Origin: Croceivirga thetidis
GTDB lineage: Bacteria > Bacteroidota > Bacteroidia > Flavobacteriales > Flavobacteriaceae
Reading direction: 5' to 3'
NCBI RefSeq assembly: GCF_012272815.1
Contig: NZ_JAAWWL010000001.1
Span: 1,301,146 to 1,365,145, forward strand
DNA: 64,000 nt
Of the stretch, positions 31,278 through 46,237 are shown one piece after another (within the stretch, counting starts at the first letter, position 1; each line of letters opens with the position of its first letter). The notes under the pieces are model-generated. The model did not search any database and was not told where the DNA came from. It worked only from the letters and a program-made list of their open reading frames with translations. The position numbers were made by a program, and so were the translations under genes.

Positions 31278-32723
31278 ATGCTAATACTACCATTACAATT
31301 GGGCGGAGGCGGCACTTTGCTTGCCATTGGCTTCGCCATCCTCTTTTTCTTTATAATTATTATATCCTTCATTAGAAGGTACAAACGCTGTCCCTCAGAC
31401 CGTATTCTTGTGGTCTATGGAAAGGTAGGTACTGGTAATTCTGCCAAGTGTATTCATGGTGGAGCCGCCTTTGTTTGGCCCGTTATCCAAGACTATGAGT
31501 ATTTGGATTTGACCCCTATTTCAATAGAGGTCGATTTGCAGAACGCCCTTAGTAAACAGAATATACGGGTTAACGTACCTTCTCGTTTTACCATAGGTAT
31601 TTCAACCGAACCCGGTGTAATGCAGAACGCGGCTGAGCGCTTATTGGGCCTTGGTCTTCCAGAGGTTCAAGATTTGGCCAAGGAAATCATTTTCGGTCAG
31701 TTACGTTTGGTTGTAGCATCTATGGATATTGAAGAAATCAATGCCGATAGAGATAAGTTTTTGACAAATATTTCTGCAAGTGTTGAGTCTGAATTGAAGA
31801 AGGTTGGTCTCAAGTTAATTAACGTAAACATCACTGATATTGTTGATGAATCTGGTTATATCGAAGCTTTGGGTAAGGAAGCTGCCGCTCATGCAATCAA
31901 TGCCGCACGTAAATCAGTTGCTGAAAAAAATAGGGATGGTTCTATTGGTGAGGCAAATGCACTACAAGATGAGCGTACCCAGGTAGCAGCCGCAAATGCA
32001 AAAGCAGTCGAAGGTGAGAACATTGCCAAAATAGATGTTGCCAATTCAGATTCACTGCGAAGACAGCGAGAGGCTGAGGCTGAGCGAACCGCCATCGCTG
32101 CTGAGAAGGTTCAGTCTGCTAAAGCTTTGGAAGAGTCCTATGCAGCTGAAAGAGATGCTGAAGTTGCAAGGGCAGAACGTGAGCGAAGCTCTCAATTGGC
32201 TGATATTGTTGTCCCTGCTGAGATAGACAAACAGAAAGTTGAAATTGAAGCCGAAGCTGAAGCTGAAATGATTCGTAGAAGGGCCAAAGGTGAGGCTGAC
32301 GCAATTCTGTTTAAAGCTCAGGCAGAAGCTAAAGGTATTTTTGAAGTATTGACCAAGCAGGCCGAAGGTTTGGATAAAATAGTTCAAGCAGCCGGTGACA
32401 ATCCAAAAGATGCAGTTTTGTTATTAATTGCTGATAAATTACCTGAGTTGGTCGAAAAGCAGGCTGAGGCTATTAAGAATATCAAAATTGATAAGGTTAC
32501 GGTTTGGGATTCTGGTCAGAAGTCTGAAGATGGAAAGAACTCGACAGCCAACTTTATTTCAGGTATGTACAAGTCGGTACCACCCTTACAGGAAATGTTC
32601 AATATGGCAGGTATGCAATTACCTGAGTATTTAAAGGGTAAGGACATTACCGTTGATGATGGTAAAGGAGCAAAACCAGCTCAGAAATCACAGAAAAAAA
32701 CCGATTCAAAATCGGAAGAATAA
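31278..32723 (+). CDS. flotillin / SPFH (band-7) family protein
   Basis: N-terminal TM, SPFH domain, then a long Ala/Glu-rich coiled coil (EAEAERTAIAAEKVQSAKALEE...). Confidence 0.8.
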   Translation: MLILPLQLGGGGTLLAIGFAILFFFIIIISFIRRYKRCPSDRILVVYGKVGTGNSAKCIHGGAAFVWPVIQDYEYLDLTPISIEVDLQNALSKQNIRVNVPSRFTIGISTEPGVMQNAAERLLGLGLPEVQDLAKEIIFGQLRLVVASMDIEEINADRDKFLTNISASVESELKKVGLKLINVNITDIVDESGYIEALGKEAAAHAINAARKSVAEKNRDGSIGEANALQDERTQVAAANAKAVEGENIAKIDVANSDSLRRQREAEAERTAIAAEKVQSAKALEESYAAERDAEVARAERERSSQLADIVVPAEIDKQKVEIEAEAEAEMIRRRAKGEADAILFKAQAEAKGIFEVLTKQAEGLDKIVQAAGDNPKDAVLLLIADKLPELVEKQAEAIKNIKIDKVTVWDSGQKSEDGKNSTANFISGMYKSVPPLQEMFNMAGMQLPEYLKGKDITVDDGKGAKPAQKSQKKTDSKSEE

Positions 32724-32738
32724 AGAGCTTATTTTGAA

Positions 32739-32767
32739 AGACGGCGGATTTTTCCGCCGTTTTTTTA
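32739..32767. terminator. bidirectional terminator between flotillin (+) and gpsA (-)
   Basis: ACGGCGGA (32741-32748), TTTTT loop, CCGCCGT (32754-32760), then TTTTTT. On the minus strand it follows the gpsA stop. Confidence 0.75.
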
Positions 32768-33766
32768 ACCAGGTTCTGACTCTGAACCGCTTTCTAATTT
32801 TAAAAGCCCTCTGAATGCATCATGAACCGTATTGTCTTCATAAAGCACTTTATAAACCTCTTCTGAAATGGGCATATGAACGTTGTAGTCTTGTGCCAAT
32901 TCCATAACAACTTTAGCAGTTTTCACCCCTTCGGCAACTTCTGACATTTCTTCTATTATCTCATCCAGTTTTTTCCCTTTTCCCAATTGAAAGCCTACAT
33001 GTCGGTTTCGACTTTTGGTACTACTACAGGTCGCAACCAAATCACCCATGCCGGCAAGACCAGCGAAGGTTCTTCGCCGACCACCCATTGCCGTGCCCAA
33101 TCTTGTAAGCTCTGAAAGTCCACGTGTAATAAGAGCTGCTCGAGTATTATCTCCAGCGTTTGCACCATCACCCATTCCTGTAGCAATGGCCATAATGTTC
33201 TTTAACGCACCACCGAGTTCACATCCAATAACATCATTATTCGTGTAAACCCGAAATAGACCTGAATTGAAAACGCCTTGTAGTTTTTTGCCAATCACTT
33301 CATCAACCATGGCAATCACGGCTGCAGCCGCTTGACCATTGTGAATTTCCTTGGCTAGATTTGGACCGGTTAGAACGCCTGTTGGATGCCCAGGTAGGAT
33401 TTCTTCGATAACTTCGGTCATCCTTTTTTTGGTACCCATTTCTAATCCCTTTGAAAGGCTTACAATTGGTATCCAGGGTCTAATATGGGCTTTTGCTGTT
33501 TCCAATACTGTTCTGAAATTTTGTGATGGAATGCCCATTACCAAAACATCAGAATTTTTAACGGTTTCTTCTATTGAAGCTGAGGCTTTAAGATTTTTGT
33601 TAAGGAGTGCTCCCGGAAGGTATTTTGAATTGGTGCGATGTTCGTTGATTTCATTAACGGTATTTTCGTTTCGTGCCCAAATAGTAGTATTTGCATTCCG
33701 GGCAGTTAAGGAGGCAACTGTGGTTCCCCAAGATCCTCCTCCCAACAATCCAACATTTAATGGCAT
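32765..33766 (-). CDS. gpsA: NAD(P)H-dependent glycerol-3-phosphate dehydrogenase
   Basis: VGLLGGGSWGTT Rossmann motif, GpsA-like length. The ORF-track start at 33781 is TTG; the ATG at 33766 (MPLNVGLLGGGSWG) is the likely start. Confidence 0.85.
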   Translation of the reverse strand: MPLNVGLLGGGSWGTTVASLTARNANTTIWARNENTVNEINEHRTNSKYLPGALLNKNLKASASIEETVKNSDVLVMGIPSQNFRTVLETAKAHIRPWIPIVSLSKGLEMGTKKRMTEVIEEILPGHPTGVLTGPNLAKEIHNGQAAAAVIAMVDEVIGKKLQGVFNSGLFRVYTNNDVIGCELGGALKNIMAIATGMGDGANAGDNTRAALITRGLSELTRLGTAMGGRRRTFAGLAGMGDLVATCSSTKSRNRHVGFQLGKGKKLDEIIEEMSEVAEGVKTAKVVMELAQDYNVHMPISEEVYKVLYEDNTVHDAFRGLLKLESGSESEPG

Positions 33767-33808
33767 AGGCAATGGTTTCAAAGTGGATTGCTTGAGAAGG
33801 CAATCCTA

Positions 33809-36800
33809 TTAGTTATTCAGTTCAGCTACGAACAGGTCCCTTACCTGTTCTACGTATTTATCCAAATCTTTCAATTTCCATAGTCCAGTATCCACGGGTT
33901 CCAAAACGACAACTTCTATATGGGTAGGACGTAATAATTTGGCACCTTTCGGCATAGCCTGGTATGCATTTTTGATAACTATTGGAATGATTGGAACTCC
34001 AGCTTGTATGGCCAAATGAAATGCACCTTTTTTGAACTTGCCCAGCTCTGCTGTACCACTTCTTGTACCTTCAGGGGCAATAGCGACTGAAATCCCACTT
34101 TTTAAGGCATCCACTGCTGGTTTCATGGCCTCTATAGCCTTGGCTTTGTTACTTCTGTCTATATAGATAGCACCTAGGGCCTTAAATATTGGACCAATTG
34201 GGCTTTTCTCCAATTCCTTTTTAGCTACACCTGTAAAATCATTACGGAGCAACTTCATCACAATAAAAAAGTCTGCTGCACTTTGATGGTTAAAGCAAAA
34301 AACAGCTGGACGAAAATCGGTCAGGTAGCGTTTTCCCCGAACTGAAATCTGCAACCCAGCAAGTCTGGTACCCAAATCCCCAATGGTTGCAAAGGTAGTA
34401 TTGGCAGCTTCTTGTCTTGACATTGTAGTCAAGCCTTTAATTGCTCCCCTTACCGCTGAAGGATAGATGCTAGCGACCGCCAAGCCCGTACGAAGACCGT
34501 TCACCACAGATTTTTCTTGTGGTTCTTCAAATCTTAGAATTGGCCAATCGTTTTCAAAAGCAACTTGTGACAAGGCGTTATCTGGATTTACGGCAACGGG
34601 CTTTCCTACTATCTTGAATAAGGGATAATCATCAAAGCTGTCCGAGTAAAAATAACTTTTAGAAAGGTCAATATCGTTATCTCGAGCAAATGAACGGGCT
34701 GCTTTGGCCTTACCTTCACCCCAACACATTTCTTCGATTCGACCCGTGAACTTCCCGTTTTGCAGCTCCATTCTGGTGCAGTATATATCAGATATACCCA
34801 GCTCTTTGGCTATCGGCGCAACTTGATACGCGGTGGCAGCCGAAACGATTACCACGCGGTGCCCTTTTTCTAAATGTTTTTCAATCAGTTTTCTTGACTC
34901 AGGATAAATGGTTGCGGCTAAAAACTCGTCATAGACATCCTGCCCTACATCGTAGAATACCTTTTCTGGAATTCCCTTGACCCCTAGGGCTGCAATTTTG
35001 GTTAATACCTCAAAATCTCGATTTCCAAATGAATACACCAGCGCTGTAATAAACTGTGTGATGTATTCTTTTGGGGTGGTTTCACCGCTAAATAATCTTG
35101 TTCGTACAAATCGTTTGGCAGAAAAGTCGTTAATCAGTGTACGGTCCAAATCAAAATAAGCAGCGATATGATTTCCTTCCTCTTCTTCAAGTGTTTCTTT
35201 TTTCGAATGTATTGTAGAAGCTTGCGGAACCAATAATTTCTTACTGGATATCAAGTCCATGCTTTTTTCGCTTGGTTCTACCTCAAATTCATTGAGGTAG
35301 GTGAGTCTGGTGGTAAGGTCTTCAAGTTGAACCATCCACTCTTCAAGACCTTTTTGGTTTATATGCTGTTGTTTTAGTCCAAGACCTGCATTTTCGGCAA
35401 AACGATAAGCGTTCTGCAAGAATGGTTTTGAAACGCTATCCAATCTTGTGATTCTACTTTGCCAATGCAGTTCTTTTCCTTTGAACATGCAAAGCTCCAG
35501 GAAATCATCTTCCGAATATGGGTCTTCATTGTCCCAATTGAGTAGGGTATAGCAAACAACTTTGTAAGCATCTAAATAAGACAGGAGCAGTGCCCTTGAA
35601 ATGAACAAGTGCTGTTTTTTAAGTATTTCAGAAATATCCCTTGAGGAATCACTTAGGATATCGCGCCAATCTTTATGAAACCGAAATAGTTCCTCTTCAA
35701 TTTCTTCACTGAATTTTGCCTTATTAGTATAGAAAAATTCGAATTTAAATAGATTTCTGAGGTTCATGATTTCCTCCCAGAAATGAACAATTCTGTTGTC
35801 TGAAGTATCATCCTTGATTTTAGCCAAGGCCATCTCTACAAAAGCTGAATGATACAAATGCCCCGCGGTCATATTTGCATAATAAGTAGCAGGAAGGTAT
35901 TCTGATGAAACAATGCTGTACTGTGCTTTTTGACCGGCCCTGCTTTTTTGTAGAATATTTGCCCCTTGTAGCAGATTTAAAGCTTTTTGGACGCTTACAG
36001 CTATAGGGAAACCCCTATCCATCAAGGCGTTTTCTTGTTTTTTACCGATGTACTCCATTAACCGCTTCACCTTGAATTCGATTTCCTTTTTGGTCAAGGC
36101 AAAATCATTCAATAAAACCGTACATATTAGCGAAACAGTTGATACTGGTGTTATTCTTGACATTCTGGTGATTACATCAAATGCAAAAAAGGGCAGTGTA
36201 TTTTTATTTGCATAGCTGTCTTCACTTAATTGAGGTACGGTAACATTGTGTGTTTCATCAATTTCAACGGGGTCGCCAAACCGTATTGCAGCGCGGCCAT
36301 AATCACTGCCAAGACTTCGAACATATTTAACACCTTCAGCTAGGTTTTCAGATTTCTTTTTGGCGCCACGACCTTGTTGGGTCATTTCTTTAACATCAGG
36401 GATGAGGTCGTAAACAATGGAAACCGGCACATATTTTATGGCCCTTGAACTCTGTTTTTCGGCGTCCATTATGTATTTGAGAATACCCATTTGCGGATGC
36501 AGAATCTTACCGGTTCTAGAACGGGTACCTTCAATATTCCATGTAAGGTGATCGCCTTTATCGATGATGGTCGAAATGTAATGCCTAAGCGTTACTTTGT
36601 AAACAGGATTATCTTTAAAACTTCGCCTTATAAATACGATACCTGCACTTTTCCCTAATTGTTTCATACCAGGGAAAGCCAAATTGATTCCACCAAAAGA
36701 ATAGGGAACGGGCATACCGTATCGGGCCAATGTTGCTATCAAAACCAAGGTGTCTAAGTAGGTCTTGTGCGTCATGATGAATGCAACGGAATTCAACCGC

Positions 36801-37051
36801 ATTAACTTCATCAATTTTTTTATCCCCTTTGGGTCAACATCTATTTTTTCGCTGTAAGCACGAGATAGGATGTAATCGAAGCCTTTGACCGATACCATTT
36901 TGGCAATAGGATGTTGCTCGGCATATAGTTCTCTGATATACTCTGTGGCTTCTTTTTGGACTTCTTTGAAATCGAGCTTATGTTCTTTGGCGGTTTGCCT
37001 TAAGACTTCTTGAAATTTTTCATTCTTTATGATATTGTCCATACTGCCCAA
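33809..37051 (-). CDS. tri-domain fusion: PlsB-type glycerol-3-phosphate acyltransferase + HAD-IB phosphatase + PlsC-type lysophosphatidate acyltransferase
   Basis: N-terminal domain has PlsB blocks I-IV: AFIMTHKTYLDTLVL (HxxxxD), GIVFIRRSF, WNIEGTRSRTGKIL, KYVPVSIVYD. The middle domain has HAD motifs: YFDLDRTLI (DxDxT), VVIVSAAT, a conserved Lys region, SDSFDD. The C-terminal domain has PlsC blocks: FCFNHQSAADFFI, AIYIDRSN, IAPEGTRS, VPIIPIVI. 1080 aa. The track start at 37051 is TTG; an ATG at 37042 is the likely start. Confidence 0.85.
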   Translation of the reverse strand: MGSMDNIIKNEKFQEVLRQTAKEHKLDFKEVQKEATEYIRELYAEQHPIAKMVSVKGFDYILSRAYSEKIDVDPKGIKKLMKLMRLNSVAFIMTHKTYLDTLVLIATLARYGMPVPYSFGGINLAFPGMKQLGKSAGIVFIRRSFKDNPVYKVTLRHYISTIIDKGDHLTWNIEGTRSRTGKILHPQMGILKYIMDAEKQSSRAIKYVPVSIVYDLIPDVKEMTQQGRGAKKKSENLAEGVKYVRSLGSDYGRAAIRFGDPVEIDETHNVTVPQLSEDSYANKNTLPFFAFDVITRMSRITPVSTVSLICTVLLNDFALTKKEIEFKVKRLMEYIGKKQENALMDRGFPIAVSVQKALNLLQGANILQKSRAGQKAQYSIVSSEYLPATYYANMTAGHLYHSAFVEMALAKIKDDTSDNRIVHFWEEIMNLRNLFKFEFFYTNKAKFSEEIEEELFRFHKDWRDILSDSSRDISEILKKQHLFISRALLLSYLDAYKVVCYTLLNWDNEDPYSEDDFLELCMFKGKELHWQSRITRLDSVSKPFLQNAYRFAENAGLGLKQQHINQKGLEEWMVQLEDLTTRLTYLNEFEVEPSEKSMDLISSKKLLVPQASTIHSKKETLEEEEGNHIAAYFDLDRTLINDFSAKRFVRTRLFSGETTPKEYITQFITALVYSFGNRDFEVLTKIAALGVKGIPEKVFYDVGQDVYDEFLAATIYPESRKLIEKHLEKGHRVVIVSAATAYQVAPIAKELGISDIYCTRMELQNGKFTGRIEEMCWGEGKAKAARSFARDNDIDLSKSYFYSDSFDDYPLFKIVGKPVAVNPDNALSQVAFENDWPILRFEEPQEKSVVNGLRTGLAVASIYPSAVRGAIKGLTTMSRQEAANTTFATIGDLGTRLAGLQISVRGKRYLTDFRPAVFCFNHQSAADFFIVMKLLRNDFTGVAKKELEKSPIGPIFKALGAIYIDRSNKAKAIEAMKPAVDALKSGISVAIAPEGTRSGTAELGKFKKGAFHLAIQAGVPIIPIVIKNAYQAMPKGAKLLRPTHIEVVVLEPVDTGLWKLKDLDKYVEQVRDLFVAELNN

Positions 37052-37063
37052 AACCGTTAACTC

Positions 37064-38254
37064 CTAATTTAAGAAAAACAAACTTCTCTTTTTCTTGTTC
37101 CAGTAAAAAGGATAGAGAAAGCGTTCTATGAAAGTTGTAGTGTCTTCAACGGTCCTACCTTCAATGTTGGCTTGCAAGGCATTTGCCGTAATCAATAGCA
37201 CACTGACATTTGCGCCTAATCCTGAATGACTACCATAAACTTCAATGTTGGCAATATCTTTTCTGAAACTTTCTGCTTCCATACAATGTTTCCAAGGCAA
37301 AAGACCGTCGGTTTTTGTATAAATACAGGTTATAGGAACATTGGGTATTGGGTCCAATTCTTCTAAAAAACGCTTGTTTCGCTCTTTTAATGATTTACCC
37401 CTAAAGAATTCAAGAACACCATTCACAGGGGTCTTCATGTCCATAACTCCCCAAACAGGTGAACCAATGGTCACAATTTGCTCAACCATATCAGGATGTC
37501 GGTTGGCCATAATTTTAGCGAAAAGACCACCGCCACTCCAACCCACTATATTGACTTTTTGCCCACGGGTACGAAAAATATCTTCTAGTTTTTCTTCTAG
37601 CCTTGGTATATAATGAGATTTGATCAGGTTGACACCTTGATCCCATTTGTAGGTTTTGAAACCCAAAGAAGTCAAATAGCGACGCACAAATGAGGTTGAA
37701 TAATCATCTCCTAAATAGGGCGGAATCAAAAGAACTGGCCTGCCATCTCCTTTAATTCGTTTTGGTATAAAGGGATAAAATGCATAAATCGATGTCCATT
37801 CTACCAAAGACCTTCCTTCCAATAGCATATTGAAAAGTGGTGGCTTGGGAATCTTTAAATTGATTTGAGCAATTTGACGCTTGAAACTTTCCAGAACATT
37901 TTTGGTGAGTTCAGTTGTTTTCGGATCACTTTTTTCGACAAGATCCTCAACGACATGTTCAAGTATGTTTATCAAGGTATAGTACTCACGGCTCGGCCCA
38001 AGTTCGTCGCAGATTCGTATACATTTTTGAAATGAGGAATTAATATCACTTTCATTATCGAGAGTTAACTTCTTGATAAGAGGAAGTAAATCTTCAGAAT
38101 CTTGATGGTCTTTAAAGTGTTTTGAAAATATTCGTTTCAAGTCTCGAACCGCAAGTTTGTTCTTTTTGCCCAAATGGGTAATGAACTCGATAAAAGCTTC
38201 GTATAAATGCAAATAGTCGTTCATGGTTTGTGGGGGATATGCTTGTTTAGCCAT
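37064..38254 (-). CDS. lipase-like alpha/beta-hydrolase with N-terminal helical domain
   Basis: The C-terminal half carries a nucleophile elbow VNIVGWSGGGLF, a candidate Asp (TKTDGLLPW) and a candidate His (GSHSGLG). An alternative ATG at 38224 would give an ATGA overlap with the upstream gene stop. Confidence 0.55.
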   Translation of the reverse strand: MAKQAYPPQTMNDYLHLYEAFIEFITHLGKKNKLAVRDLKRIFSKHFKDHQDSEDLLPLIKKLTLDNESDINSSFQKCIRICDELGPSREYYTLINILEHVVEDLVEKSDPKTTELTKNVLESFKRQIAQINLKIPKPPLFNMLLEGRSLVEWTSIYAFYPFIPKRIKGDGRPVLLIPPYLGDDYSTSFVRRYLTSLGFKTYKWDQGVNLIKSHYIPRLEEKLEDIFRTRGQKVNIVGWSGGGLFAKIMANRHPDMVEQIVTIGSPVWGVMDMKTPVNGVLEFFRGKSLKERNKRFLEELDPIPNVPITCIYTKTDGLLPWKHCMEAESFRKDIANIEVYGSHSGLGANVSVLLITANALQANIEGRTVEDTTTFIERFLYPFYWNKKKRSLFFLN

Positions 38255-39162
38255 GTAATGATATCTTCTTCGACCTCTTCGCTGTTTATTTCGTTAAGCA
38301 TTTCATGTCGGCCTCCTTTGTAGAGATTGAAAGTCAGTTCATTGTTGCCATTTTCTCTATAATTTTTGGCAACTTTAGTGACCCCCTTGCCCATTTCTCC
38401 AACGGGATCCTCATCTCCTGAAAATATCAGTATAGGGAGGTCATCAGGGGTACTTATAAAGGCTTCAGGTTTATTCAATTGTCGCGAATTGGTCAATATG
38501 TCTGCAAAAACGCCAATTGAAAAATTTTCTATTCGATAAGGGTCGGCTTCAAAAATATCAACTGCAGTTTCATCACTACTTATCCAATCAAGTTTGGTTC
38601 TATTGGGTTTGAATTTTTTATTGAATTCATCAAAAAAGAATGCCCTTAAGGTTTCGTTGCTTCGTTCCCTACCTCTGAAAGCACTAACAAGTTTTGTGCT
38701 TGCCAGCCCAAAATGACCGAGTCCTTTTATAAAATTTGCGGTTCCTGATAAAATAAGAGCGTCAATATCCGAGCCGTGTTCTAGTACATATTTACGACTT
38801 AGCAAAGATCCCATGCTATGCCCAAATAGAATAAACTTCGTGTTAGGGTGTTCCTGGCACATCAATGTAGTCAAAGAATGCATATCTGCAACAGCATCCC
38901 CAAAATAATCGTCGCCATCATAATAACCGAACAATCGTTTTATTTCGGCAGTTTTTCCATGGGCGCGATGGTCGTTCGCATACACAGTAAAACCTTCTTT
39001 TTGTAAGCGATTTGCTATGGTTTCATACCTGCCCGCATGTTCACCTATACCATGTGCAATTTGAATAACACCTCTAAGAACAGTCCCTTCTGCTGCCTCC
39101 CATTTATAGTAGCAGATGACTTCCCCATCCTTGGCGGTAAATGTATTTGTTTTGTAAGGCAT
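38221..39162 (-). CDS. alpha/beta hydrolase, lysophospholipase / monoacylglycerol-lipase family
   Basis: HGIGEHAGRY and GHSMGS motifs typical of the Hydrolase_4 / lysophospholipase L2 / MGL family. 313 aa. ATG confirmed. Confidence 0.7.
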   Translation of the reverse strand: MPYKTNTFTAKDGEVICYYKWEAAEGTVLRGVIQIAHGIGEHAGRYETIANRLQKEGFTVYANDHRAHGKTAEIKRLFGYYDGDDYFGDAVADMHSLTTLMCQEHPNTKFILFGHSMGSLLSRKYVLEHGSDIDALILSGTANFIKGLGHFGLASTKLVSAFRGRERSNETLRAFFFDEFNKKFKPNRTKLDWISSDETAVDIFEADPYRIENFSIGVFADILTNSRQLNKPEAFISTPDDLPILIFSGDEDPVGEMGKGVTKVAKNYRENGNNELTFNLYKGGRHEMLNEINSEEVEEDIITWLNKHIPHKP

Positions 39163-39164
39163 CT

Positions 39165-41003
39165 TTATCTGCTTAAAAAGGCTTTGATGAGGTTACTAAA
39201 CTTTCGCTTATCGGCAACAGTTCCTGAAAGTTTAAGGCGCTGTTGAATTTTAAGCTCGTCGAAAAGAAATTTTTTCTTGTAAAGTGCGTAGAGATTTTCA
39301 TCCTCAATTTCCATGAGCATTTTTGGATCTAGTGCTGTTGTCTTTTTAATTGAAATAGGTTCTTTAGTCAAGTCAATTTCCCAACATTCGCTACTTTCTC
39401 CCATATCAACCCCAATATGATATAGGCCTTTATATTTTTTTACGAGAGCGGTTTCTTTCTTGAGGTATCTTTTTAATGCGTTGAAAAATACGGTGCTCTC
39501 ACTCTTTTTCTTAGCCTCTTTTGCAGGTGTTTTTTTCTTATCCCTTGCTAAGATTAATTTTTCCAATTCATTTGCTGACTCTCGAATGTATCTGGAGAAC
39601 AAATAGGCATCTGGCATTGTCTTCGCATCAGATGTCGGTGTAATACTTATATTGCCGTTATAGCTAAAAGCCGCGATAATCAGTCCAAAACCATTGACCA
39701 CCGGAGTCAACGGAAACATAGCTACCACTTTATGGCCGTTGAGGTACAACGTATTTTTTGGTCCAGGCACATTGGTGATGGTGACATTAAAAGGTGGCCT
39801 GTGTAGGTCTTTAATATTGTACTTGCTGTAGATACGTGCCGCTAAATTGGCCAAGCCGAATGGAACCGCATCTGCCATTTTTACCAAGGTTTTTGCACCC
39901 ATAGTTTTATGCCTTGCTTTACCAAGCATTGTCTGTTCTTGTATATATTCCAGACGTTCCAATGGTTCTTCAATATGCGTGGCCAGCTGAATCATCATAT
40001 TGGCTATTTGGTTGTTATGCGAAGTATCGTTTTCGGCGCGTATTGAAATCGGAACATTAGCGACCAATGGCTGCATTGGTAATTTTTCTTTTTCAAGTAG
40101 ATATCTGCGCAAAGCTCCGGCACAAATGGCAAGCACAACATCATTAATACTACCACCAGCCAGTTTTCGTAGACCATTCACCCTATCAAAAGACAGAATT
40201 GCGGTGCCCCAAGTTCTTTTTGGCGAAATATTTCCATTAAAAATGGTATTTGGCACAGGATATCTTGCCGTTGCAAATTCCTTTTGGATACTTAGCGTTT
40301 TAGAAGCTCTTGTTTTGACAAGCGCAATTGCGGTGTTGGCAACGGATTTGGGTAGTTTTAGGGGGTTTTTAAAAAAACCGTAGCTACTTTTTAGTAGCAA
40401 ACTCAAGTCGTCAGGCAGCGGATCTGGTTGAAATTTTTTGATTTTTGATTTGTCGATGGGCTTTACTTTATCATCTTTCTCAAACAAAGTTCCTAAAAGA
40501 CCTACGCCTGAACTTCCATCAATCATTACATGATGAACTTTACTTACAATGGCAACAGAGCCTTTGGGCACTTGTGGGATTTCGTCAATACCCTCAATAA
40601 AATGAATTGACCAAAGGGGTCTTCTCAAATCGAGGGGAGCACTGAAAATTCGTGAGGTTGTTCTACGCAAAGACTCCCAATTTGAGGGATCTGCCAACTT
40701 CATGCGGTTGAGATGAAGATCTAATTCAAAATTTGGATCATCAACCCAATATGGATAATCCAAATCCATGGGAACACGCATTAAACGCTGTCTAAATTTT
40801 GGCATTAAATGTAGCTTCGAAGCAACAATTTTTTTGAAGTCCTTGAAATTAAGTGAACCTTCAACAACCAATAGCGTGGCAATATGCATCGGACTTGTGG
40901 GAGACTCGGCATAAAGAAAGGTTGCATCGGTACCTGAGACTTGTTCGTATTTGCCTTCCAACACCTCTTGTGCAATATCTTTAAAATCAATTTTTGATGC
41001 CAT
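39165..41003 (-). CDS. wax ester synthase / acyl-CoA:diacylglycerol acyltransferase (WS/DGAT) fused to C-terminal SCP2-like lipid-binding domain
   Basis: HHVMIDGSSG (HHxxxDG catalytic motif), the ATFLYAES...PMHIATLL N-terminal block, PKFRQRL, PYWVDD, LDLRRPLWSIHFIEG. The last roughly 130 aa (GLYHIGVDMGESSECWEIDLTKEP...KLSG) match an SCP2 sterol-carrier fold pattern. 612 aa versus about 460 aa for a typical WS/DGAT. Confidence 0.85.
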   Translation of the reverse strand: MASKIDFKDIAQEVLEGKYEQVSGTDATFLYAESPTSPMHIATLLVVEGSLNFKDFKKIVASKLHLMPKFRQRLMRVPMDLDYPYWVDDPNFELDLHLNRMKLADPSNWESLRRTTSRIFSAPLDLRRPLWSIHFIEGIDEIPQVPKGSVAIVSKVHHVMIDGSSGVGLLGTLFEKDDKVKPIDKSKIKKFQPDPLPDDLSLLLKSSYGFFKNPLKLPKSVANTAIALVKTRASKTLSIQKEFATARYPVPNTIFNGNISPKRTWGTAILSFDRVNGLRKLAGGSINDVVLAICAGALRRYLLEKEKLPMQPLVANVPISIRAENDTSHNNQIANMMIQLATHIEEPLERLEYIQEQTMLGKARHKTMGAKTLVKMADAVPFGLANLAARIYSKYNIKDLHRPPFNVTITNVPGPKNTLYLNGHKVVAMFPLTPVVNGFGLIIAAFSYNGNISITPTSDAKTMPDAYLFSRYIRESANELEKLILARDKKKTPAKEAKKKSESTVFFNALKRYLKKETALVKKYKGLYHIGVDMGESSECWEIDLTKEPISIKKTTALDPKMLMEIEDENLYALYKKKFLFDELKIQQRLKLSGTVADKRKFSNLIKAFLSR

Positions 41004-41015
41004 TGGTCAGTTGTT

Positions 41016-42353
41016 TTATGCTACTCGCGAACGGTTCTTTTTTTGTAAGCTAGTATAATTATTGATGCCTATATTTTCTGCTTTGAGTTCAAACATTAAA
41101 CTAAATAGGCCAAAAAATGTTCTATTTAGATAAATAATGTGTCTTGAACCCCTATTGGCGTTCATTTTTCTAACATTTGAAGACTTCATGTAATGCTCAC
41201 CTAAAGCTGAAATTCTTTCGAATAATGATTGGTCTGAAAAGTCGAAAGTTTCGCTTTGAAAAGGTTGTGTAAAACATTCAAGTACCTCGTAGAACATTTT
41301 GGTAAAAAACTCAAGTTCTTCTTCAGAATCTTCAGTCTTCAACACTTCAAGGGCCAAAAGATTTTTTCGAAAACTCTTTTCGTTATTTATAACATCTGCT
41401 TTAAAAAGTTCGAAATACGGCGTATAAAATTCATTTGGAATTTCTTTCATACAACCAAAATCAAGTGCAATCACCTCGTTTTTATCCGAAACAAGAAAAT
41501 TTCCAGGGTGAGGATCTGCATGAACTTTGCGCAATTCATGCAATTGGTACATGTAAAAATCCCAAAGTGTTTGGCCAACTTTGTTCGAAGCCTTTTGGTC
41601 AGTATTTGATTTAATAAATTCAGAAAGATGCTTACCATTCATCCAATCCATTGTAATAATGTCAGAAGAAGAGTATTCAGGGTAGTACTTAGGAAATCTC
41701 AAATTTGGAATATGTTGACATGAACTTGCGACCTCTTGGCTTTGTTTTAGCTCCAAGACATAATCCGTTTCTTCTACAAGCTTGTTTTCAACTTCCTTGA
41801 AATATTTCTCTGAATGTTCTCCCTTGATGTTGAACATTTTCATAGCAACAGGTTTCACAATTGCTAAATCGGATTGAATACTTTCGGCTACACCAGGGTA
41901 TTGGATTTTTACGGCAAGGGTCTTACCATTTTTTTCAGCTTGATGTACCTGTCCAATACTTGCAGCATTAATTGCTTCATTACCAAATTTGTCGAATAAT
42001 TGGTTTGGATACTTACCGAATGATTTTCTGAAGGTTTTGAGAACCAAAGGAGCAGAAAGCGGAGGAACTGAAAATTGGGAAAGGGAAAATTTCTCTACAA
42101 AAGCCTTGGGCATAATGTTCTTTTCCATGCTCATCATTTGTGCCATTTTCAGGGCACTTCCCTTCAATGTTTTTAAACTATCATAGATATCGTTCGCGTT
42201 GTTTTCATCAAGACGTTCCTTAGCCTTCTCTTCAGAATTGACCATCTTGTCGCCATAATATTTCAAATAATTTACACCAACTTTAGCACCCGTTTTTACT
42301 AGTTTGGAAGTGCGTTGCAGCTTTGAAATCGGTATTTTTTTCGATGTCTTCAT
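41016..42353 (-). CDS. ABC1/UbiB (AarF) atypical protein kinase family protein
   Basis: AASIGQVHQAEKNGKTLAVKIQYPGV and ADPHPGNF are ABC1-kinase signatures. 445 aa. ATGA overlap with the upstream TetR-like gene. Confidence 0.8.
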   Translation of the reverse strand: MKTSKKIPISKLQRTSKLVKTGAKVGVNYLKYYGDKMVNSEEKAKERLDENNANDIYDSLKTLKGSALKMAQMMSMEKNIMPKAFVEKFSLSQFSVPPLSAPLVLKTFRKSFGKYPNQLFDKFGNEAINAASIGQVHQAEKNGKTLAVKIQYPGVAESIQSDLAIVKPVAMKMFNIKGEHSEKYFKEVENKLVEETDYVLELKQSQEVASSCQHIPNLRFPKYYPEYSSSDIITMDWMNGKHLSEFIKSNTDQKASNKVGQTLWDFYMYQLHELRKVHADPHPGNFLVSDKNEVIALDFGCMKEIPNEFYTPYFELFKADVINNEKSFRKNLLALEVLKTEDSEEELEFFTKMFYEVLECFTQPFQSETFDFSDQSLFERISALGEHYMKSSNVRKMNANRGSRHIIYLNRTFFGLFSLMFELKAENIGINNYTSLQKKNRSRVA

Positions 42354-43012
42354 TCGTTTTCTTTCGACTTTATTTTTTCGGCATACAAAAATTTACCGAG
42401 GTCAATGATATTATGTAATGATTTGGTATTCAATAGCTCTAAAGCAGTATTTACTGACTTTTCAATGAAAATATCTGTTTTTTCGCACCGTTGTGAATCG
42501 TCCGACATCCAGAATTTGATGGTCAATAAGAACTGGACCCAAAAGCCTTCTTTAATTGACTTTTTTTGAAATGATTCCAGACTACTGGTAAGATTGAGCG
42601 GTTCCATCGCCAATGAATCGACGAATCCATCAAAACTTTGCTTTAATTCGCTGAATAGCGATATTGTACCTAAGCTTAAACCATAATCTTTTAAGGTGAT
42701 TAAGATGAATTCTCGATTTAAGGTCAGGTTTTCAAAAAAAGTATAATACAGGCTGAGCAGTTTGTCCTTTTTGTCAAAGGAAGGATATTCAGAACTTTCA
42801 GCAAGGGTAGCAATCGAAACATCAAAAAGCGTTCTGAAAATCGCCTTGTCCAATTCTTCAAAATCCTTATAATGTTCATGAAAAGAATTGGCATCAAAAT
42901 CATAGTGTTCACCCAAATTTTCTATTGAATCGGGTTTGCCCTGCAGTCTTACCACTGCATCCATATAAAAATCTATAAGATCTTCTTCTGTTATTTTCTG
43001 TTGATTTGCCAA
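42350..43012 (-). CDS. TetR/AcrR-like transcriptional regulator (divergent HTH)
   Basis: TEEDLIDFYMDAVVRLQGKPDSIENLGEHYDFDANSFHEHYKDFEEL aligns position-by-position with the TetR consensus HTH (TRERILEAALELFAERGY..TSMRDIAEAAGVSKGALYHHFPSKEAL). TTG start at 43012. Confidence 0.5.
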   Translation of the reverse strand: MANQQKITEEDLIDFYMDAVVRLQGKPDSIENLGEHYDFDANSFHEHYKDFEELDKAIFRTLFDVSIATLAESSEYPSFDKKDKLLSLYYTFFENLTLNREFILITLKDYGLSLGTISLFSELKQSFDGFVDSLAMEPLNLTSSLESFQKKSIKEGFWVQFLLTIKFWMSDDSQRCEKTDIFIEKSVNTALELLNTKSLHNIIDLGKFLYAEKIKSKENE

Positions 43013-43108
43013 CCTAAGATGTGAACGTTTTCATAGCTTTTTCGGGAATGCCAAATGGAAATTGAGGTAAATCCGAAGCATAGCTAAATTAAGGAATTAT
43101 GCATGCAT

Positions 43109-43145
43109 AAAAAAACCAGTTAGTCTCATTGAGATTAACTGGTTT
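43109..43145 (-). terminator. rho-independent terminator of the phasin-like operon (minus strand)
   Basis: AACCAGTTAGTCTCA / TGAGATTAACTGGTT near-perfect inverted repeat (43116-43145). On the minus strand it is followed by TTTTTTT (plus-strand A-run 43109-43115). It sits just downstream of the 43177 stop. Confidence 0.7.
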
Positions 43146-43176
43146 CAGTAACTAAACTTAAATAACTAACGAAATA

Positions 43177-43464
43177 CTAAGCTACCAGTTTTTTGAATCT
43201 CTTCTGACCCTCTTTGAAATCACCTTTGATTTCGTTTAAGATATCAAAAACCAATTCTTGTTGTTTGGCCGCCAATTTCAATCCTCCTTTTACAGCTTTG
43301 TCAGCAACACCTTGCCACTGTTCTGTAATTTCAATTGATGTGGATACAAACTCTTCGGTTTTTGTTAGGGCAACTTGGTTTGCGTTAAGTGCCATATCCT
43401 TGGTCTTCTTTGCATAGTTTGCAAAAATTCCCTTCTTATTTTTATTTACTTTCTTATTTCCCAT
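43177..43464 (-). CDS. phasin-like small amphipathic protein (paralog 1)
   Basis: 95 aa, predicted all-helical and Lys-rich, with the KQQELVFDILNEIK motif shared with the two neighbouring paralogs. Confidence 0.5.
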   Translation of the reverse strand: MGNKKVNKNKKGIFANYAKKTKDMALNANQVALTKTEEFVSTSIEITEQWQGVADKAVKGGLKLAAKQQELVFDILNEIKGDFKEGQKRFKKLVA

Positions 43465-43502
43465 TACGGTTTGAATTAAGATTAGTCCCTATTTGAACTG
43501 AA

Positions 43503-44381
43503 TTATTTTTTGTTGTCAGCCAACCAAGCCGCTATAGCTTCAACTCCTGCCTCAGCTCCTAGTTCTGCTTGTTTTTTCAAGTCAGTAACGCTGGTATTTT
43601 TAAAAGTTGAACCCGCTTCATCAAGAATCGACTTGATTTTAGTTTCAGTTGCCTGTGCCAATTGCGCAAAAGTTTCGATACCATTCTCCTTGAAAATACG
43701 CTCAAGTTTAGGACCAACACCCTTAATAGCTTTAAGGTCATCTTTAATAACGGCCTTAACAGTGCTCTCAACCTTCGCCGCTTTTTGCTTTACCTCGGCT
43801 ACTTTCACAGAAGCTTTTTTAGAGGTTTTTGTAGCTTTAGCAGTAACTGTTTTCTTTGTTTTCCCAACATTTTTCTTTGTTTGCTTCAAGGCATCATCAA
43901 CCAAGTCTTCACCCTTGTCAATTACCTTTTTAGCCTGCTTAAGAGCGTCTTCCTTGACCTCATTAAATTTGGCTACGCCCTGATTTTTTAGGTTTTCAGC
44001 AGTTTTCTCAACCTTTTGAACGATTGGGTTTTCTATAACTTTCTCTTTAATGGTTTCAGAAACTTCCAATACCTTTTTACCTACAGGTGTTTTAGATACA
44101 TATTCAAAGGCACGCTCAATGGTGTCCTCATCATAACCAACCAAATCCATGGTCTTTTCTTTTCCTGTGTTGAACTGATTTTTTACTGTTGCTGCAGTTT
44201 CAAAAACCAAATCCATTTGTCTTTTACGTAATGGCTCGGTTTTTTTAACCATTTTCTTGGTCAATTCTTGCCATTTCTCACCATGCTCTATGGTCGTGTT
44301 AATTGTTGCCATTGTCACATTTATCAATGACTTATTCAAGCTTTCGCTTTTTTTAGTTCTGTTTTTTGTTGCTGTTGCCAT
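43503..44381 (-). CDS. phasin-like protein with Lys/Ala-rich linker and C-terminal helix-hairpin-helix domain (paralog 2)
   Basis: N-terminus shares KRQMDLVFETAATVK with the paralogs. The middle has KTKKTVTAKATKTSKKASVKVAEVKQKAAK (histone-H1-like). The C-terminus has DDLKAIKGVGPKLERIFKENGIETFAQLAQAT (HhH). Confidence 0.5.
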   Translation of the reverse strand: MATATKNRTKKSESLNKSLINVTMATINTTIEHGEKWQELTKKMVKKTEPLRKRQMDLVFETAATVKNQFNTGKEKTMDLVGYDEDTIERAFEYVSKTPVGKKVLEVSETIKEKVIENPIVQKVEKTAENLKNQGVAKFNEVKEDALKQAKKVIDKGEDLVDDALKQTKKNVGKTKKTVTAKATKTSKKASVKVAEVKQKAAKVESTVKAVIKDDLKAIKGVGPKLERIFKENGIETFAQLAQATETKIKSILDEAGSTFKNTSVTDLKKQAELGAEAGVEAIAAWLADNKK

Positions 44382-44425
44382 GATATATTTTGTTTAAATA
44401 CTGTTGTTCTTAATTAATTATGATG

Positions 44426-44461
44426 CAAATCTAATTTTGAGTAGTTACAAATGAGTTGCAA
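44426..44461 (-). promoter_or_regulatory. candidate SARP-box promoter: TTGCAAC-N4-TTGTAAC direct repeat (minus strand 44461-44443) plus TAGATTTG -7 box (44433-44426)
   Basis: Reverse complement of 44443-44461 is TTGCAACTCATTTGTAACT. Fourteen nt after its second TTG lies TAGATTTG, which matches the Bacteroidota TAnnTTTG -7 element. This is 45 nt upstream of the ATG at 44381. Confidence 0.5.
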
Positions 44462-44467
44462 TCGAAA

Positions 44468-44719
44468 CTAGTTCTTGACAATTCTCTTTTTGATACCGTA
44501 GAGGGCATCAAAAACAAGTTCTTGTTGGGCAGCAGTGATGTCCAATCCTTTTTTCACAACTTTTGAGGTCAAATCCAAAGATTTATAACCTAAGCCAATA
44601 GAAACATCGAATGCTTTTTCTGTTGTGGAAAGTGCAAAGTCGTTTGCTTTGTTTGCCAATCCAAGAGCGTTATCCGCTACTTTTTCTACAATGTTCTTTT
44701 TCGTTTTTTTAGTTGCCAT
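44468..44719 (-). CDS. phasin-like small amphipathic protein (paralog 3)
   Basis: 83 aa, with AAQQELVFDALYGIKK near the C-terminus matching paralog 1. ATG confirmed. Confidence 0.5.
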   Translation of the reverse strand: MATKKTKKNIVEKVADNALGLANKANDFALSTTEKAFDVSIGLGYKSLDLTSKVVKKGLDITAAQQELVFDALYGIKKRIVKN

Positions 44720-44756
44720 AACTATATATTTTTCTAATGTTTTCTATTTTATGGTG

Positions 44757-44792
44757 CAAACATAGAATCCCATAGTTACAAATGAGTTACAA
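44757..44792 (-). promoter_or_regulatory. candidate SARP-box promoter: TTGTAAC-N4-TTGTAAC direct repeat (minus strand 44792-44774) plus TATGTTTG -7 box (44764-44757)
   Basis: Reverse complement of 44774-44792 is TTGTAACTCATTTGTAACT. The repeat-to-TAnnTTTG spacing is identical to the 44426-44461 element. It is 38 nt upstream of the ATG at 44719. Confidence 0.5.
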
Positions 44793-44866
44793 GTCTGGTT
44801 GACTATTGATTTTGAATGAAGAAAGCTGCGAAGGAAATATCGATGTTTGGAATGGGAAGATGGGAA

Positions 44867-45673
44867 TCAAGCAATAGACTCAATCTTCTTGAGCAAATCC
44901 CGAGTTGCTGGTAGTGGTGTAATACCATACTCTTCTTCTAAAATATCAGCACATTTTTGATAAGTTTTTAATGCTTGCGGCCTATTTCCTTTTTGGATAT
45001 AAGCAGACATTTGAATTCGATAAGCATCTTCCCATGTTTTATCAATGGCAATTGCTTGTTGAGCAAGCCGTACACTTTCCATTGGGTTGGTGGCTATTAA
45101 TAACTCTGCCAAATTCACCAAGGCACCCAATATCAAAACCTGAATTTTCTCTCGCTCTTCTGACGACCAATCTTCAAAAATGCGATTTGGAAGATAAGAC
45201 CCTTGATGCAATGCAATGGCCATGTTGTAGGCTTCTGCTGCAATCTCAGGAAAATCACCCAAGGCTTGATTTCCAATGATGATGTATTTCTCAATGGCAT
45301 CAACATCGATCCAAACTAAATTTGAATTTAATTGATAAGTTACCCCCTGCCGTTCTACATAAATCGCTTCGGTTCTAGATGGTCGGTTTGGTTCCAAAAC
45401 TTTGTTGACCCCATGCAGCGCTACTTTAAAATCACGATCGTCACCATCTTCCCATAAGTGGTCCATGATGTGCTCCTTGTGTAACGCATGTTTGTTTCGA
45501 TAAGAAATAAGGTATTGAATTAATTGAAGGGTCTTGTCCCGACCCCATTCTTTTGCATTGACCTTTTCTCCATCACGCCAAAGCACAAATTGACCTAGCG
45601 TTTGGAATTTAATTGGAGCTTCATTCTGAAACTTTTTATGTTGCTCCAATTGATTTGTCAATGCTGCCTTCAA
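44867..45673 (-). CDS. SARP-family (OmpR-type winged helix + BTAD) transcriptional activator
   Basis: IKFQTLGQFVLWRDGEKV...DKTLQLIQYLISYRNKHALHKEHIMDHLWEDGDD is an OmpR/SARP-type DNA-binding domain. The C-terminus (VRLAQQAIAIDKTWEDAYRIQMSAYIQKGNRPQALKTYQKCADILEEEYGITPLPATRDLLKKI) is a classic BTAD. No in-frame ATG precedes the DNA-binding domain, so the start is TTG at 45673, 45661 or 45649. Confidence 0.7.
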   Translation of the reverse strand: MKAALTNQLEQHKKFQNEAPIKFQTLGQFVLWRDGEKVNAKEWGRDKTLQLIQYLISYRNKHALHKEHIMDHLWEDGDDRDFKVALHGVNKVLEPNRPSRTEAIYVERQGVTYQLNSNLVWIDVDAIEKYIIIGNQALGDFPEIAAEAYNMAIALHQGSYLPNRIFEDWSSEEREKIQVLILGALVNLAELLIATNPMESVRLAQQAIAIDKTWEDAYRIQMSAYIQKGNRPQALKTYQKCADILEEEYGITPLPATRDLLKKIESIA

Positions 45674-45685
45674 AATTTGAAATTT

Positions 45686-46237
45686 CTATTTGGTCGTAGA
45701 TGTTTTAGCCTTGGTAGTTCTTGAAGGCTTTTTGGTATTTGCTTGGTTCATAGCATCAACCTTTTTAGTGAGTTCCGCAACCGATTTTGTGAGTTTTGAA
45801 AGACTATCTTGCATTATCTTGAAATCTGATTTAGAAGCGTTACGCCATTGGTCGATAGGTACTTTTTCCATAAGTTCCTCACCATATTCGCTTAATTGCT
45901 CCTGCAAATTGGCAACCTGTTTTCTTGGGTCTTTTAAAGTCTCTTTGAGCATTTTTGGCCCTGTGGCTGCAACTGATTTAAAAAGCGAGAAACTCTTGGT
46001 CAAAATGTTTTCCTGTTCTTCAGAAGTACGGTCGGTCGTAGCTTCCATTGTTAAATCGGCCAAATGTTGTTGTATAAAATCTACGGCCTGTTTAAAATCA
46101 GAGAAGTTTAAATCTTCACCCCCTTGAACGTGTGAAACGTTACCACGCCATTGCACTTCAGATTCACCATTTTCGTCATAGATTTTTTGGGTGAACCGAA
46201 CCATAAATGAGGCGGTCTGTGCTGCTTTTTTTGCCAT
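45686..46237 (-). CDS. hypothetical helical protein (first gene of the minus-strand block)
   Basis: 183 aa, no recognisable domain, predicted helical with a Lys/Thr-rich tail. ATG confirmed. Lies 12 bp upstream of the SARP gene. Confidence 0.4.
   Translation of the reverse strand: MAKKAAQTASFMVRFTQKIYDENGESEVQWRGNVSHVQGGEDLNFSDFKQAVDFIQQHLADLTMEATTDRTSEEQENILTKSFSLFKSVAATGPKMLKETLKDPRKQVANLQEQLSEYGEELMEKVPIDQWRNASKSDFKIMQDSLSKLTKSVAELTKKVDAMNQANTKKPSRTTKAKTSTTK

Follow-up and report, generated by a model that had tools for sequence, protein, structure and literature searches.

A WS/DGAT-family acyltransferase with a C-terminal SCP2 domain in a conserved lipid gene cluster of Croceivirga thetidis

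The gene at 39165..41003 of the window (the whole 64,000-nucleotide stretch of Croceivirga thetidis DNA that was analysed) encodes a WS/DGAT-family acyltransferase with a C-terminal SCP2 (lipid-carrier) domain, and this fusion is the form in which the enzyme normally occurs in Flavobacteriaceae and Saprospiraceae. The fusion had been thought to be undescribed in the initial annotation; it is in fact already on record. PLoS One 2023;18:e0288509 (PMC10351704), in its accessible part, places WS/DGATs of 613 ± 15 aa with a C-terminal PF02036 domain in the Bacteroidota, detects PF02036 in two of four metagenomic sequences, gives a tree and a short synteny, and calls neutral-lipid storage in Bacteroidota unexplored. 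The window protein belongs to this group: it shares the architecture, length, phylum, many of the genera and the AGPAT/hydrolase neighbour, and it is 67-86% identical to members from genera named there. The fusion follows a familiar pattern in which SCP2 domains are joined to lipid enzymes. Relative to the accessible part of PMC10351704, the present analysis adds the confirmation of the fold, an analysis of selection, the Saprospiraceae clade, a cluster of 11 genes and the homology of those tails that have no precomputed PF02036 call.

Architecture of the fusion protein

The ORF (39165..41003, minus strand, as for every domain and cluster gene given below) is complete, with 612 aa and a stop codon, and its product has 100% identity to the C. 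thetidis 'WS/DGAT/MGAT family O-acyltransferase'. The protein has three parts: a WS/DGAT core (residues 23-483), a 22-residue Lys-rich linker and a 107-residue SCP2 domain. A WS/DGAT with the sequence HHVMIDG had been annotated at this position; the ORF boundaries are exact, and the letters encoding this catalytic HHxxxDG motif (residues 157-163) are found at 40515..40535. An alignment of 40 homologues showed no variation at His157, His158, Asp162 or Gly163.

The N-terminal catalytic domain (residues 23-290; 40134..40937) matches PF03007 (WS_DGAT_cat; E = 1.3e-49, 169.8 bits) and the C-terminal domain of the core (residues 331-480; 39564..40013) matches PF06974 (WS_DGAT_C; E = 3.4e-27, 95.7 bits). 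TIGR02946 covers residues 23-483 with profile positions 2-452 of 453 and scores 396 bits, the cut-off being 310; all three family models are matched above their curated cut-offs and along their full length. The proposed colinearity with the Acinetobacter and Marinobacter enzymes also holds. PDB entry 7nxg (Acinetobacter baylyi AtfA/WSD; 463 aa) aligns with residues 26-456 (E = 3.3e-47) and PDB entry 6chj (Marinobacter Ma2; 455 aa) with residues 23-481 (E = 7.4e-42), with the same two-domain core and the shared HHxxxDG motif. Both alignments stop short of the tail: AtfA/WSD and Ma2 end where the linker of the Bacteroidota protein starts and have no SCP2 domain. We take the core to be an intact WS/DGAT-family acyl-CoA-dependent O-acyltransferase, its activity being predicted from these matches.

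Identity of the C-terminal domain

The tail beyond the core comprises residues 484-612 (39168..39554), close to the SCP2-like stretch of about 130 residues that had been claimed at approximately 39165..39560, and the pattern quoted for it (GLYHIGVDMGESSECWEIDL...LKLSG) is present in the translation. Residues 484-505 (ILARDKKKTPAKEAKKKSESTV; 39489..39554) form the linker, which is variable, has a net charge of +5 and is predicted to be disordered in part (AF2 pLDDT <50 at residues 491-497). The SCP2 domain occupies residues 506-612 (39168..39488), with the order helix-helix-four strands-helix-helix-strand-helix.

The initial annotation had proposed a profile and fold check of the tail, and both speak for an SCP2 domain. 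Against PF02036 the tail alone scores 28.0 bits (E = 2.8e-6) over the whole profile (positions 1-101 of 101) and the full-length protein scores 25.0 bits, both above the gathering score of 21.3; the match of the tail is far better than chance would give. The same profile is matched by 29 of the 31 orthologous tails, and it gives 61 bits with P0153, a homologue from the second clade (Saprospiraceae/Bacteroidota). Eight of the 31 tails also match PF14864 (the SCP2-like C-terminal domain of alkylsulfatases). The alignment of the family-profile consensus with rabbit SCP2 (1c44) runs from helix A through helix E and is broken by just two short indels. The AF2 model of the tail, which is of high confidence, has the alpha/beta SCP2 fold: a five-stranded sheet with helices over it and a C-terminal helix. 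Among the structural neighbours of the tail are SCP2-like domains joined to enzymes that handle lipids (alkylsulfatases, Eis acetyltransferases, UbiJ and CFA synthase). Sequence, profile and fold together thus show the tail to have a canonical SCP2 lipid-binding fold. The full-length AF2 model has a pLDDT of 61.5 and a pTM of 0.51 and was built on a shallow, low-diversity alignment, and for these reasons is unfit for conclusions about docking. The tail terminates in ...AFLSR, with no PTS1 signal; in mammalian SCP2 the last residues form the peroxisomal signal AKL.

Conservation and selection

We collected orthologues from 59 species loci, all in Flavobacteriaceae, of which 50 contain a complete gene. 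The tail is kept in all 50, with lengths of 608-615 aa, and a second large clade with the same fusion is found in Saprospiraceae, which answers positively the question of whether other Bacteroidota genomes carry it. The dN/dS ratio is 0.043 for the core, 0.116 for the SCP2 domain and 0.25 for the linker; both the core and the SCP2 tail are under purifying selection. A precomputed PF02036 call is missing for 45 of the 120 closest homologues. These 45 proteins are of equal length and can be aligned throughout, evidence that their tails are homologous to the rest.

Gene neighbourhood and predicted pathway

The fusion gene lies in an extended conserved cluster of 11 genes, with synteny that holds across genera and partly across orders. 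In the direction of transcription the cluster starts with a 183-aa protein (45686-46237) and its partner, a BTAD-domain protein (44867-45673), which together span 44867..46237. Two phasin-like basic helical proteins follow (43177..44381), one of 292 aa with an HHH_5 domain at its C-terminal end (43503-44381) and one of 95 aa (43177-43464). The next gene encodes a TetR_C_23-domain protein (42350..43012), for which no TetR_N match was found at E ≤ 1, and its stop overlaps by 4 nt the start of a gene for an ABC1/UbiB-type atypical kinase (41016..42353; PF03109, E = 8e-57) that lies 12 nt upstream of the fusion gene. The kinase gene is syntenic in loci L001-L054 wherever the contig extends that far; in the Flavobacteriaceae loci that diverge most (L055-L059), as in Saprospiraceae, neither the ABC1 nor the TetR_C_23 gene is present near the fusion.

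On the other side, a gene for a Hydrolase_4 alpha/beta hydrolase resembling monoacylglycerol lipases or lysophospholipases (38221..39162; PF12146, E = 1.6e-47) begins 2 nt past the fusion gene stop and is likewise syntenic. It is followed by a 396-aa alpha/beta hydrolase with weak Palm_thioest/PGAP1-like matches (37064..38254), by a 1080-aa protein in which profile matches identify a GPAT (PlsB-like, GPAT_C), an HAD-IB hydrolase and an AGPAT (PlsC-like) in a single chain (33809..37051), and by gpsA, the NAD(P)-dependent glycerol-3-phosphate dehydrogenase (32765..33781). From the TetR-like gene through gpsA the intergenic gaps are -34 to +27 nt. The triple fusion is conserved in Flavobacteriaceae and has 1100-1106 aa in Saprospiraceae, where gpsA is also syntenic, a related PGAP1/Palm_thioest-like hydrolase is present, and a BTAD protein and an adjacent unannotated protein of 173-174 aa stand next to the fusion. 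An SPFH/Band-7 gene beside the cluster was considered as a member and rejected, being syntenic in none of the 59 loci. A scan for promoters and terminators between 32 and 47 kb gave counts equal to the shuffled expectation, using a sigma-70 consensus that is inapplicable to Bacteroidota, and Rfam and tRNA scans of the whole window gave no matches.

The operon context points to triacylglycerol synthesis by the Kennedy pathway. GpsA would supply glycerol-3-phosphate, which the GPAT-HAD-AGPAT protein would convert to lysophosphatidate and phosphatidate, and possibly to diacylglycerol through its HAD domain, and the WS/DGAT-SCP2 protein would catalyse the final step. Since gpsA and the triple fusion share its operon, the fusion enzyme probably acts mainly as a DGAT, as judged from gene context alone. 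A fatty acyl-CoA reductase would favour wax esters; none was matched among the scanned window ORFs of at least 200 aa (37 such ORFs, with those at 4656-5471, 5600-6640, 12841-13740, 13746-14603, 60660-62066 and 25557-26171 set aside), and one could be encoded elsewhere in the genome or in ORFs outside the scan. Sterol as a particular acceptor is unsupported. These abundant marine heterotrophs thus have a compact, conserved operon that could lead from dihydroxyacetone phosphate to triacylglycerol.

Possible roles of the SCP2 domain

The likeliest role of the tail is that of a lipid chaperone acting in cis on the WS/DGAT, at the end of a Kennedy-type route to triacylglycerol, and we put the chances of this at about even. 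The SCP2 tunnel would take up a hydrophobic ligand (a long-chain acyl-CoA or, as acceptor, diacylglycerol or a fatty alcohol) and hand it to the active site of the core; alternatively, it would carry the very insoluble product off to a nascent lipid body. Either route would raise the local substrate concentration and lessen product inhibition. Mammalian acyl-CoA-dependent acyltransferases are served in this way by free SCP2, in trans, and comparable roles are held by the SCP2-like domains of SCPx, MFE-2, the alkylsulfatases and UbiJ. SCP2 binds fatty acyl-CoA with a Kd of 2-4 nM, promotes the incorporation of acyl-CoA into phosphatidic acid and improves the delivery of cholesterol to the ER for esterification by ACAT (reviewed in PMC9602805). 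The SCP2 domain is not mechanistically required, because AtfA and Ma2 work without one.

The main rival is that the SCP2 domain and the Lys-rich linker form a targeting or anchoring module that keeps an acyltransferase which would otherwise be soluble or peripheral on the anionic leaflet of the inner membrane or on the phospholipid monolayer of a nascent lipid body, rather than a ligand shuttle, which we regard as possible but on balance doubtful. The linker (mean net charge +5.9 across homologues) and the SCP2 domain (net +7, mean +7.7; pI 9.5) are strongly basic, and the first SCP2 helix, TVFFNALKRYLKK, is amphipathic (muH 0.61) and bears a conserved FF pair, Phe507 being invariant and Phe506 at least 90% conserved in both clades. 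Mammalian SCP2 binds membranes through its N-terminal amphipathic helix and, to our knowledge, WS/DGATs have no transmembrane segments; the phasin-like proteins encoded in the same cluster also suit a droplet anchor. However, the core is already basic (net +14, pI 9.5) and WS/DGATs without the tail already associate with membranes and droplets, and conservation extends over the entire SCP2 fold, C-terminal helix included, which is more than an anchor needs. The highly basic character of the linker and SCP2 domain fits surface binding equally well, and the anchoring and chaperone roles are mutually compatible.

A scaffolding or regulatory role, in which GPAT-HAD-AGPAT, the ABC1/UbiB-type kinase and the TetR_C_23 protein dock on the SCP2 domain to form a metabolon for lipid intermediates, much as the SCP2 domain of UbiJ, together with UbiB, organises the ubiquinone-synthesis complex, seems unlikely. 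Saprospiraceae and loci L055-L059 keep the fusion although the ABC1 and TetR_C_23 genes are missing from its neighbourhood, and the tail is far nearer to the eukaryote-type carrier SCP2 than to UbiJ and has no UbiJ-like coiled-coil extension. The reading of the tail as a local artefact (a frameshift, a read-through or a misassembly) or as a decaying, functionless remnant was rejected and can practically be dismissed, since its sole hint, the absent precomputed PF02036 calls, concerns proteins of full length that align throughout, and against it stand 50 intact genes from different species, the dN/dS of the tail, its high-confidence AF2 model and the occurrence of the fusion in two bacterial families or orders.

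Returning to the chaperone reading, its combination with the operon is a broader and more tentative proposal: that the fused SCP2 domain lets the final Kennedy enzyme use substrates bound to protein instead of dissolved in the membrane, or pass triacylglycerol to a growing lipid body, within a neutral-lipid operon found across Bacteroidota that would comprise a three-polypeptide pathway from glycerol-3-phosphate to triacylglycerol, an ABC1 kinase, a BTAD regulator and phasin-like proteins, one of them with a DNA-binding HHH domain. If true, this would give the first WS/DGAT assisted by a carrier domain and, to judge from the word 'unexplored' in the accessible part of PMC10351704, the first evidence of regulated neutral-lipid storage in Bacteroidota. 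The fusion offers a natural experiment on how a peripheral acyltransferase reaches and sheds extremely hydrophobic molecules. Should the tail prove to help bring in substrate or release product, WS/DGATs used in the engineered production of wax esters or triacylglycerol could be fitted with it.

Comparison with related systems

The SCP2 domains of mammalian SCP2 and SCPx (a thiolase-SCP2 fusion) and the SCP2-like domain of MFE-2 (1c44, 2c0l and 1ikt) are only 18-23% identical to the tail, and in SCPx and MFE-2 the partners are beta-oxidation enzymes, in contrast to the acyltransferase here. The alkylsulfatases SdsA1, YjcS and Pisa1 (PF14864) are bacterial enzymes for long aliphatic substrates that also have a C-terminal domain with the SCP2 fold; they differ in having an unrelated catalytic domain of the metallo-beta-lactamase fold, and their fold match to the tail is weaker (TM 0.5-0.6).

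UbiJ, which is paired with UbiB (an ABC1 kinase) in ubiquinone synthesis, is likewise a case of an SCP2 fold genomically linked to an ABC1/UbiB-family protein, and both systems share the idea that a very hydrophobic intermediate is kept as a pool bound to protein. UbiJ differs in being stand-alone and structurally more distant, and the ABC1 linkage is not universal across the fusion family. The tail does not answer to the description of a UbiJ-type factor (a stand-alone N-terminal SCP2 domain with a C-terminal coiled-coil region, encoded in a ubi locus and most similar to UbiJ), and such an identity was rejected on the grounds of both similarity and architecture.

A parallel in gene context is seen in Rhodococcus jostii RHA1, for which the accessible part of PMC10351704 describes an atf9-plsB-plsC-like (AGPAT-HAD) operon. 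There too a WS/DGAT is clustered with Kennedy-pathway acyltransferases that include an AGPAT-HAD fusion; unlike the RHA1 operon as given in that source, the Bacteroidota cluster has the GPAT fused as well, in one polypeptide of 1080-1106 aa, and its WS/DGAT bears the SCP2 domain.

Identity of the tailed acyltransferase

The open reading frame at 39165..41003 on the minus strand runs uninterrupted for 612 codons, and its product and the Croceivirga thetidis entry named 'WS/DGAT/MGAT family O-acyltransferase' share 100% identity. Pfam places WS_DGAT_cat at residues 23-290 (E = 1.3e-49) and WS_DGAT_C at residues 331-480 (E = 3.4e-27), and TIGR02946, the NCBIfam model of the WS/DGAT family, covers residues 23-483 and scores 396 bits (cut-off 310). 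Positions 40515..40535 (minus strand) encode the catalytic motif HHVMIDG. Two solved WS/DGAT structures align with the core, A. baylyi WSD (7nxg; 463 aa, with E = 3e-47) and the DGAT of Marinobacter (6chj; 455 aa, with E = 7e-42), and both of these proteins stop where the tail begins. The tail is 129 residues long (39168..39554, minus strand) and has the sequence quoted in the initial annotation, which was correct in content and coordinates.

The tail had been proposed to be SCP2-like, and several lines of evidence bear this out: sequence, profile and fold, together with conservation and selection. PF02036 (SCP2) matches residues 507-607 over profile positions 1-101 of 101, scoring 25.0 bits in the full-length protein (gathering score 21.3) and 28.0 bits (E = 2.8e-6) with the tail by itself; 29 of 31 orthologous tails match it individually. 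A profile of these 31 tails, compared with the PDB, matched rabbit SCP2 (1c44; E = 3.1e-7) over nearly the whole length, interrupted by two short indels, as well as insect and human SCP2 and the SCP2-like domain of MFE-2. The AlphaFold2 model of the tail from the same alignment is confident (pLDDT 91.4, pTM 0.83), with the elements in the order helix-helix-four strands-helix-helix-strand-helix.

The fusion follows a familiar design and has already been described, bioinformatically only: a 2023 paper (PMC10351704) shows a tree of Bacteroidota WS/DGAT-SCP2 sequences and calls neutral-lipid synthesis in Bacteroidota unexplored; of the genes in the cluster, the passages retrieved from it name the AGPAT/hydrolase neighbour alone. 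The suggestion that the architecture was new therefore does not hold, as published work and precomputed domain annotations both record it; our literature search found no experimental work on it. The present analysis adds fold-level proof, a selection analysis, a Saprospiraceae clade, an extended conserved operon and evidence that the homologous tail is shared by those family members for which PF02036 is not precomputed.

Distribution and selection

The best 120 database clusters come from marine Flavobacteriaceae; 118 are 605-615 aa long and 67-86% identical to the fusion, and two shorter ones, of 561 and 575 aa, look truncated, one being labelled partial. PF02036 is precomputed for 75 of the 120, and the other 45 are equally long and align through the tail; judging from this alignment, members without the call share the homologous tail. 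With the tail profile, a scan of a single genome from each GTDB species gave 59 loci, all in Flavobacteriaceae (among them Muricauda/Flagellimonas, Croceivirga, Pricia, Dokdonia, Patiriisocius, Ulvibacter, Lacinutrix, Psychroserpens, Bizionia, Oceanihabitans, Winogradskyella, Algibacter, Polaribacter, Maribacter, Aquimarina and Aquaticitalea). Intact fusion genes (608-615 aa) were recovered from 50 loci; the remaining nine include genes cut by a contig end, going by match coordinates. By the Nei-Gojobori method, pairwise dN/dS came to 0.043 in the core, 0.116 in the SCP2 domain and 0.25 in the linker. With a mean identity of 60%, against 78% in the core, the tail is the faster-evolving part, but purifying selection on it is clear.

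An exhaustive HMMER search with the tail profile against 1.84 billion representatives returned 152 matches. Fragmentary copies of this fusion rank nearest, along with P0153, a distant full-length fusion (609 aa, 49% identical); next come eukaryote-type SCP2 architectures (tandem SCP2, hydratase-SCP2, thiolase-SCP2 and SDR-SCP2). Among the tail's closest relatives outside the fusion are six proteins of 240-800 aa (P0124, P0125, P0130, P0145, P0152 and P0160) in which the match is split into three or four stretches; both of those scanned with Pfam carry tandem SCP2 domains, four in P0124 and three in P0160. Using P0153 as the query revealed a second large fusion clade (573-633 aa) named Saprospiraceae or Bacteroidota. 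Within reach of these searches no fusion was seen outside Bacteroidota, where, by sequence, it is the standard form of WS/DGAT.

Gene cluster and pathway

The fusion gene lies in an eleven-gene minus-strand cluster (32765-46237) from a 183-aa protein to gpsA. The block from TetR_C_23 to gpsA is tightly packed (gaps of -34 to +27 nt), in the order TetR_C_23 protein, ABC1/UbiB-type kinase, fusion, Hydrolase_4 alpha/beta hydrolase, 396-aa alpha/beta hydrolase, GPAT-HAD-IB-AGPAT and gpsA. The penultimate gene (33809-37051, minus strand) encodes a PlsB-like GPAT with GPAT_C, a HAD-IB hydrolase, which is a candidate phosphatidate phosphatase, and a PlsC-like AGPAT in one 1080-aa polypeptide. Rhodococcus and other bacteria are known to carry AGPAT-HAD fusions beside their WS/DGAT genes; the retrieved passages of PMC10351704 treat two-domain fusions only, whereas here GPAT is joined too. 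The ABC1/UbiB-type atypical kinase and the TetR_C_23-only protein (41016-43012, minus strand) are translationally coupled by a 4-nt overlap; the latter has a weak COQ9-family match and no detected TetR_N HTH.

Upstream lie two basic, helical, phasin-like proteins of 95 and 292 aa (43177-44381, minus strand), with weak Phasin and Apolipoprotein matches and a common N-terminal motif (EQWQ or EKWQ, then LVFD or LVFE). The larger is extended by a Lys-rich segment and, at its C-terminus, an HHH_5 DNA-binding domain, a design that we take to resemble the PHA-granule/nucleoid tethers PhaF and PhaM and the Rhodococcus lipid-droplet protein MLDS. Next come a BTAD-domain protein, in which no DNA-binding domain is recognisable, and its 183-aa partner (44867-46237, minus strand). 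The BTAD protein is always accompanied by such a small protein, of ~175-183 aa and without a convincing family match; the two are a candidate regulator pair for the cluster.

By tblastn across the 59 loci, all 11 genes are collinear and on the same strand in L001-L054, as far as each contig extends. The five most divergent loci (L055-L059) lack the ABC1 and TetR-like genes; four extend past gpsA, and the upstream genes detected there lie beyond it (BTAD and partner in 4/4, one or both phasin-like genes in 3/4). Two Saprospiraceae loci, L061 and L063, keep a 1100-1106-aa triple fusion, gpsA and PGAP1/Palm_thioest-like hydrolases, with no ABC1 kinase or TetR_C_23 protein near the fusion; an HHH_5 protein is near it in L063 only. 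Both have a BTAD protein adjoining an unannotated 173-174-aa protein (L061, 8551-9887; L063, 8533-9869), so BTAD and a similar-sized small protein accompany the fusion gene in both families.

On paper, the G3P dehydrogenase, both Kennedy acyltransferases, the candidate HAD phosphatase and WS/DGAT suffice for DHAP to TAG. Because this set lies alongside and no fatty acyl-CoA reductase occurs among the 31 scanned window ORFs of at least 200 aa, we infer from gene context that the fusion acts mainly as a DGAT. The eleven-gene cluster resembles an operon devoted to making neutral lipid and lipid bodies, apparently complete and unstudied, in abundant marine Bacteroidota.

Role of the tail

Our preferred reading is that the tail is a lipid chaperone in cis: the SCP2 domain would deliver acyl-CoA or the acceptor to the enzyme, or remove the product, giving a testable idea of carrier-assisted WS/DGAT. 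One precedent is free SCP2 (PMC9602805): its Kd for acyl-CoA is nanomolar, it stimulates the incorporation of acyl-CoA into phosphatidic acid, and it promotes the delivery of cholesterol to the ER, where ACAT esterifies it. Another is that SCP2 folds are recurrently attached to enzymes with long aliphatic substrates. The main rival is that the basic tail chiefly holds the enzyme to a membrane or droplet. The linker (~20 residues, Lys-rich, variable and partly disordered, with pLDDT below 50 at 491-497) has a net charge of +5 and the SCP2 domain +7; the first SCP2 helix is amphipathic and bears a conserved FF pair, of which F507 is invariant and F506 is conserved to at least 90%. The charge data fit anchoring as well as they fit a chaperone, and the tail may serve both purposes. 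Structure prediction for the full-length protein was too weak to reveal how the SCP2 domain docks on the core. The UbiB/COQ8, COQ9 and UbiJ(SCP2) fold set recurs here as ABC1, TetR_C_23 and SCP2, outside quinone synthesis. That the tail is a UbiJ-like scaffold acting with the ABC1 kinase is less likely, since the fusion persists without ABC1 beside it in L055-L059 and in Saprospiraceae.

Other features of the window

An SPFH/Band-7 protein (481 aa; 31278-32723, plus strand) adjoins gpsA and might suggest a connection with lipid domains, but it was rejected as a cluster member, being syntenic with the cluster in 0/59 loci. Unconnected with the fusion, a 750-aa protein (2267-4519, minus strand) combines an APH-type phosphotransferase domain (residues 20-250) with a class-III aminotransferase (353-747).
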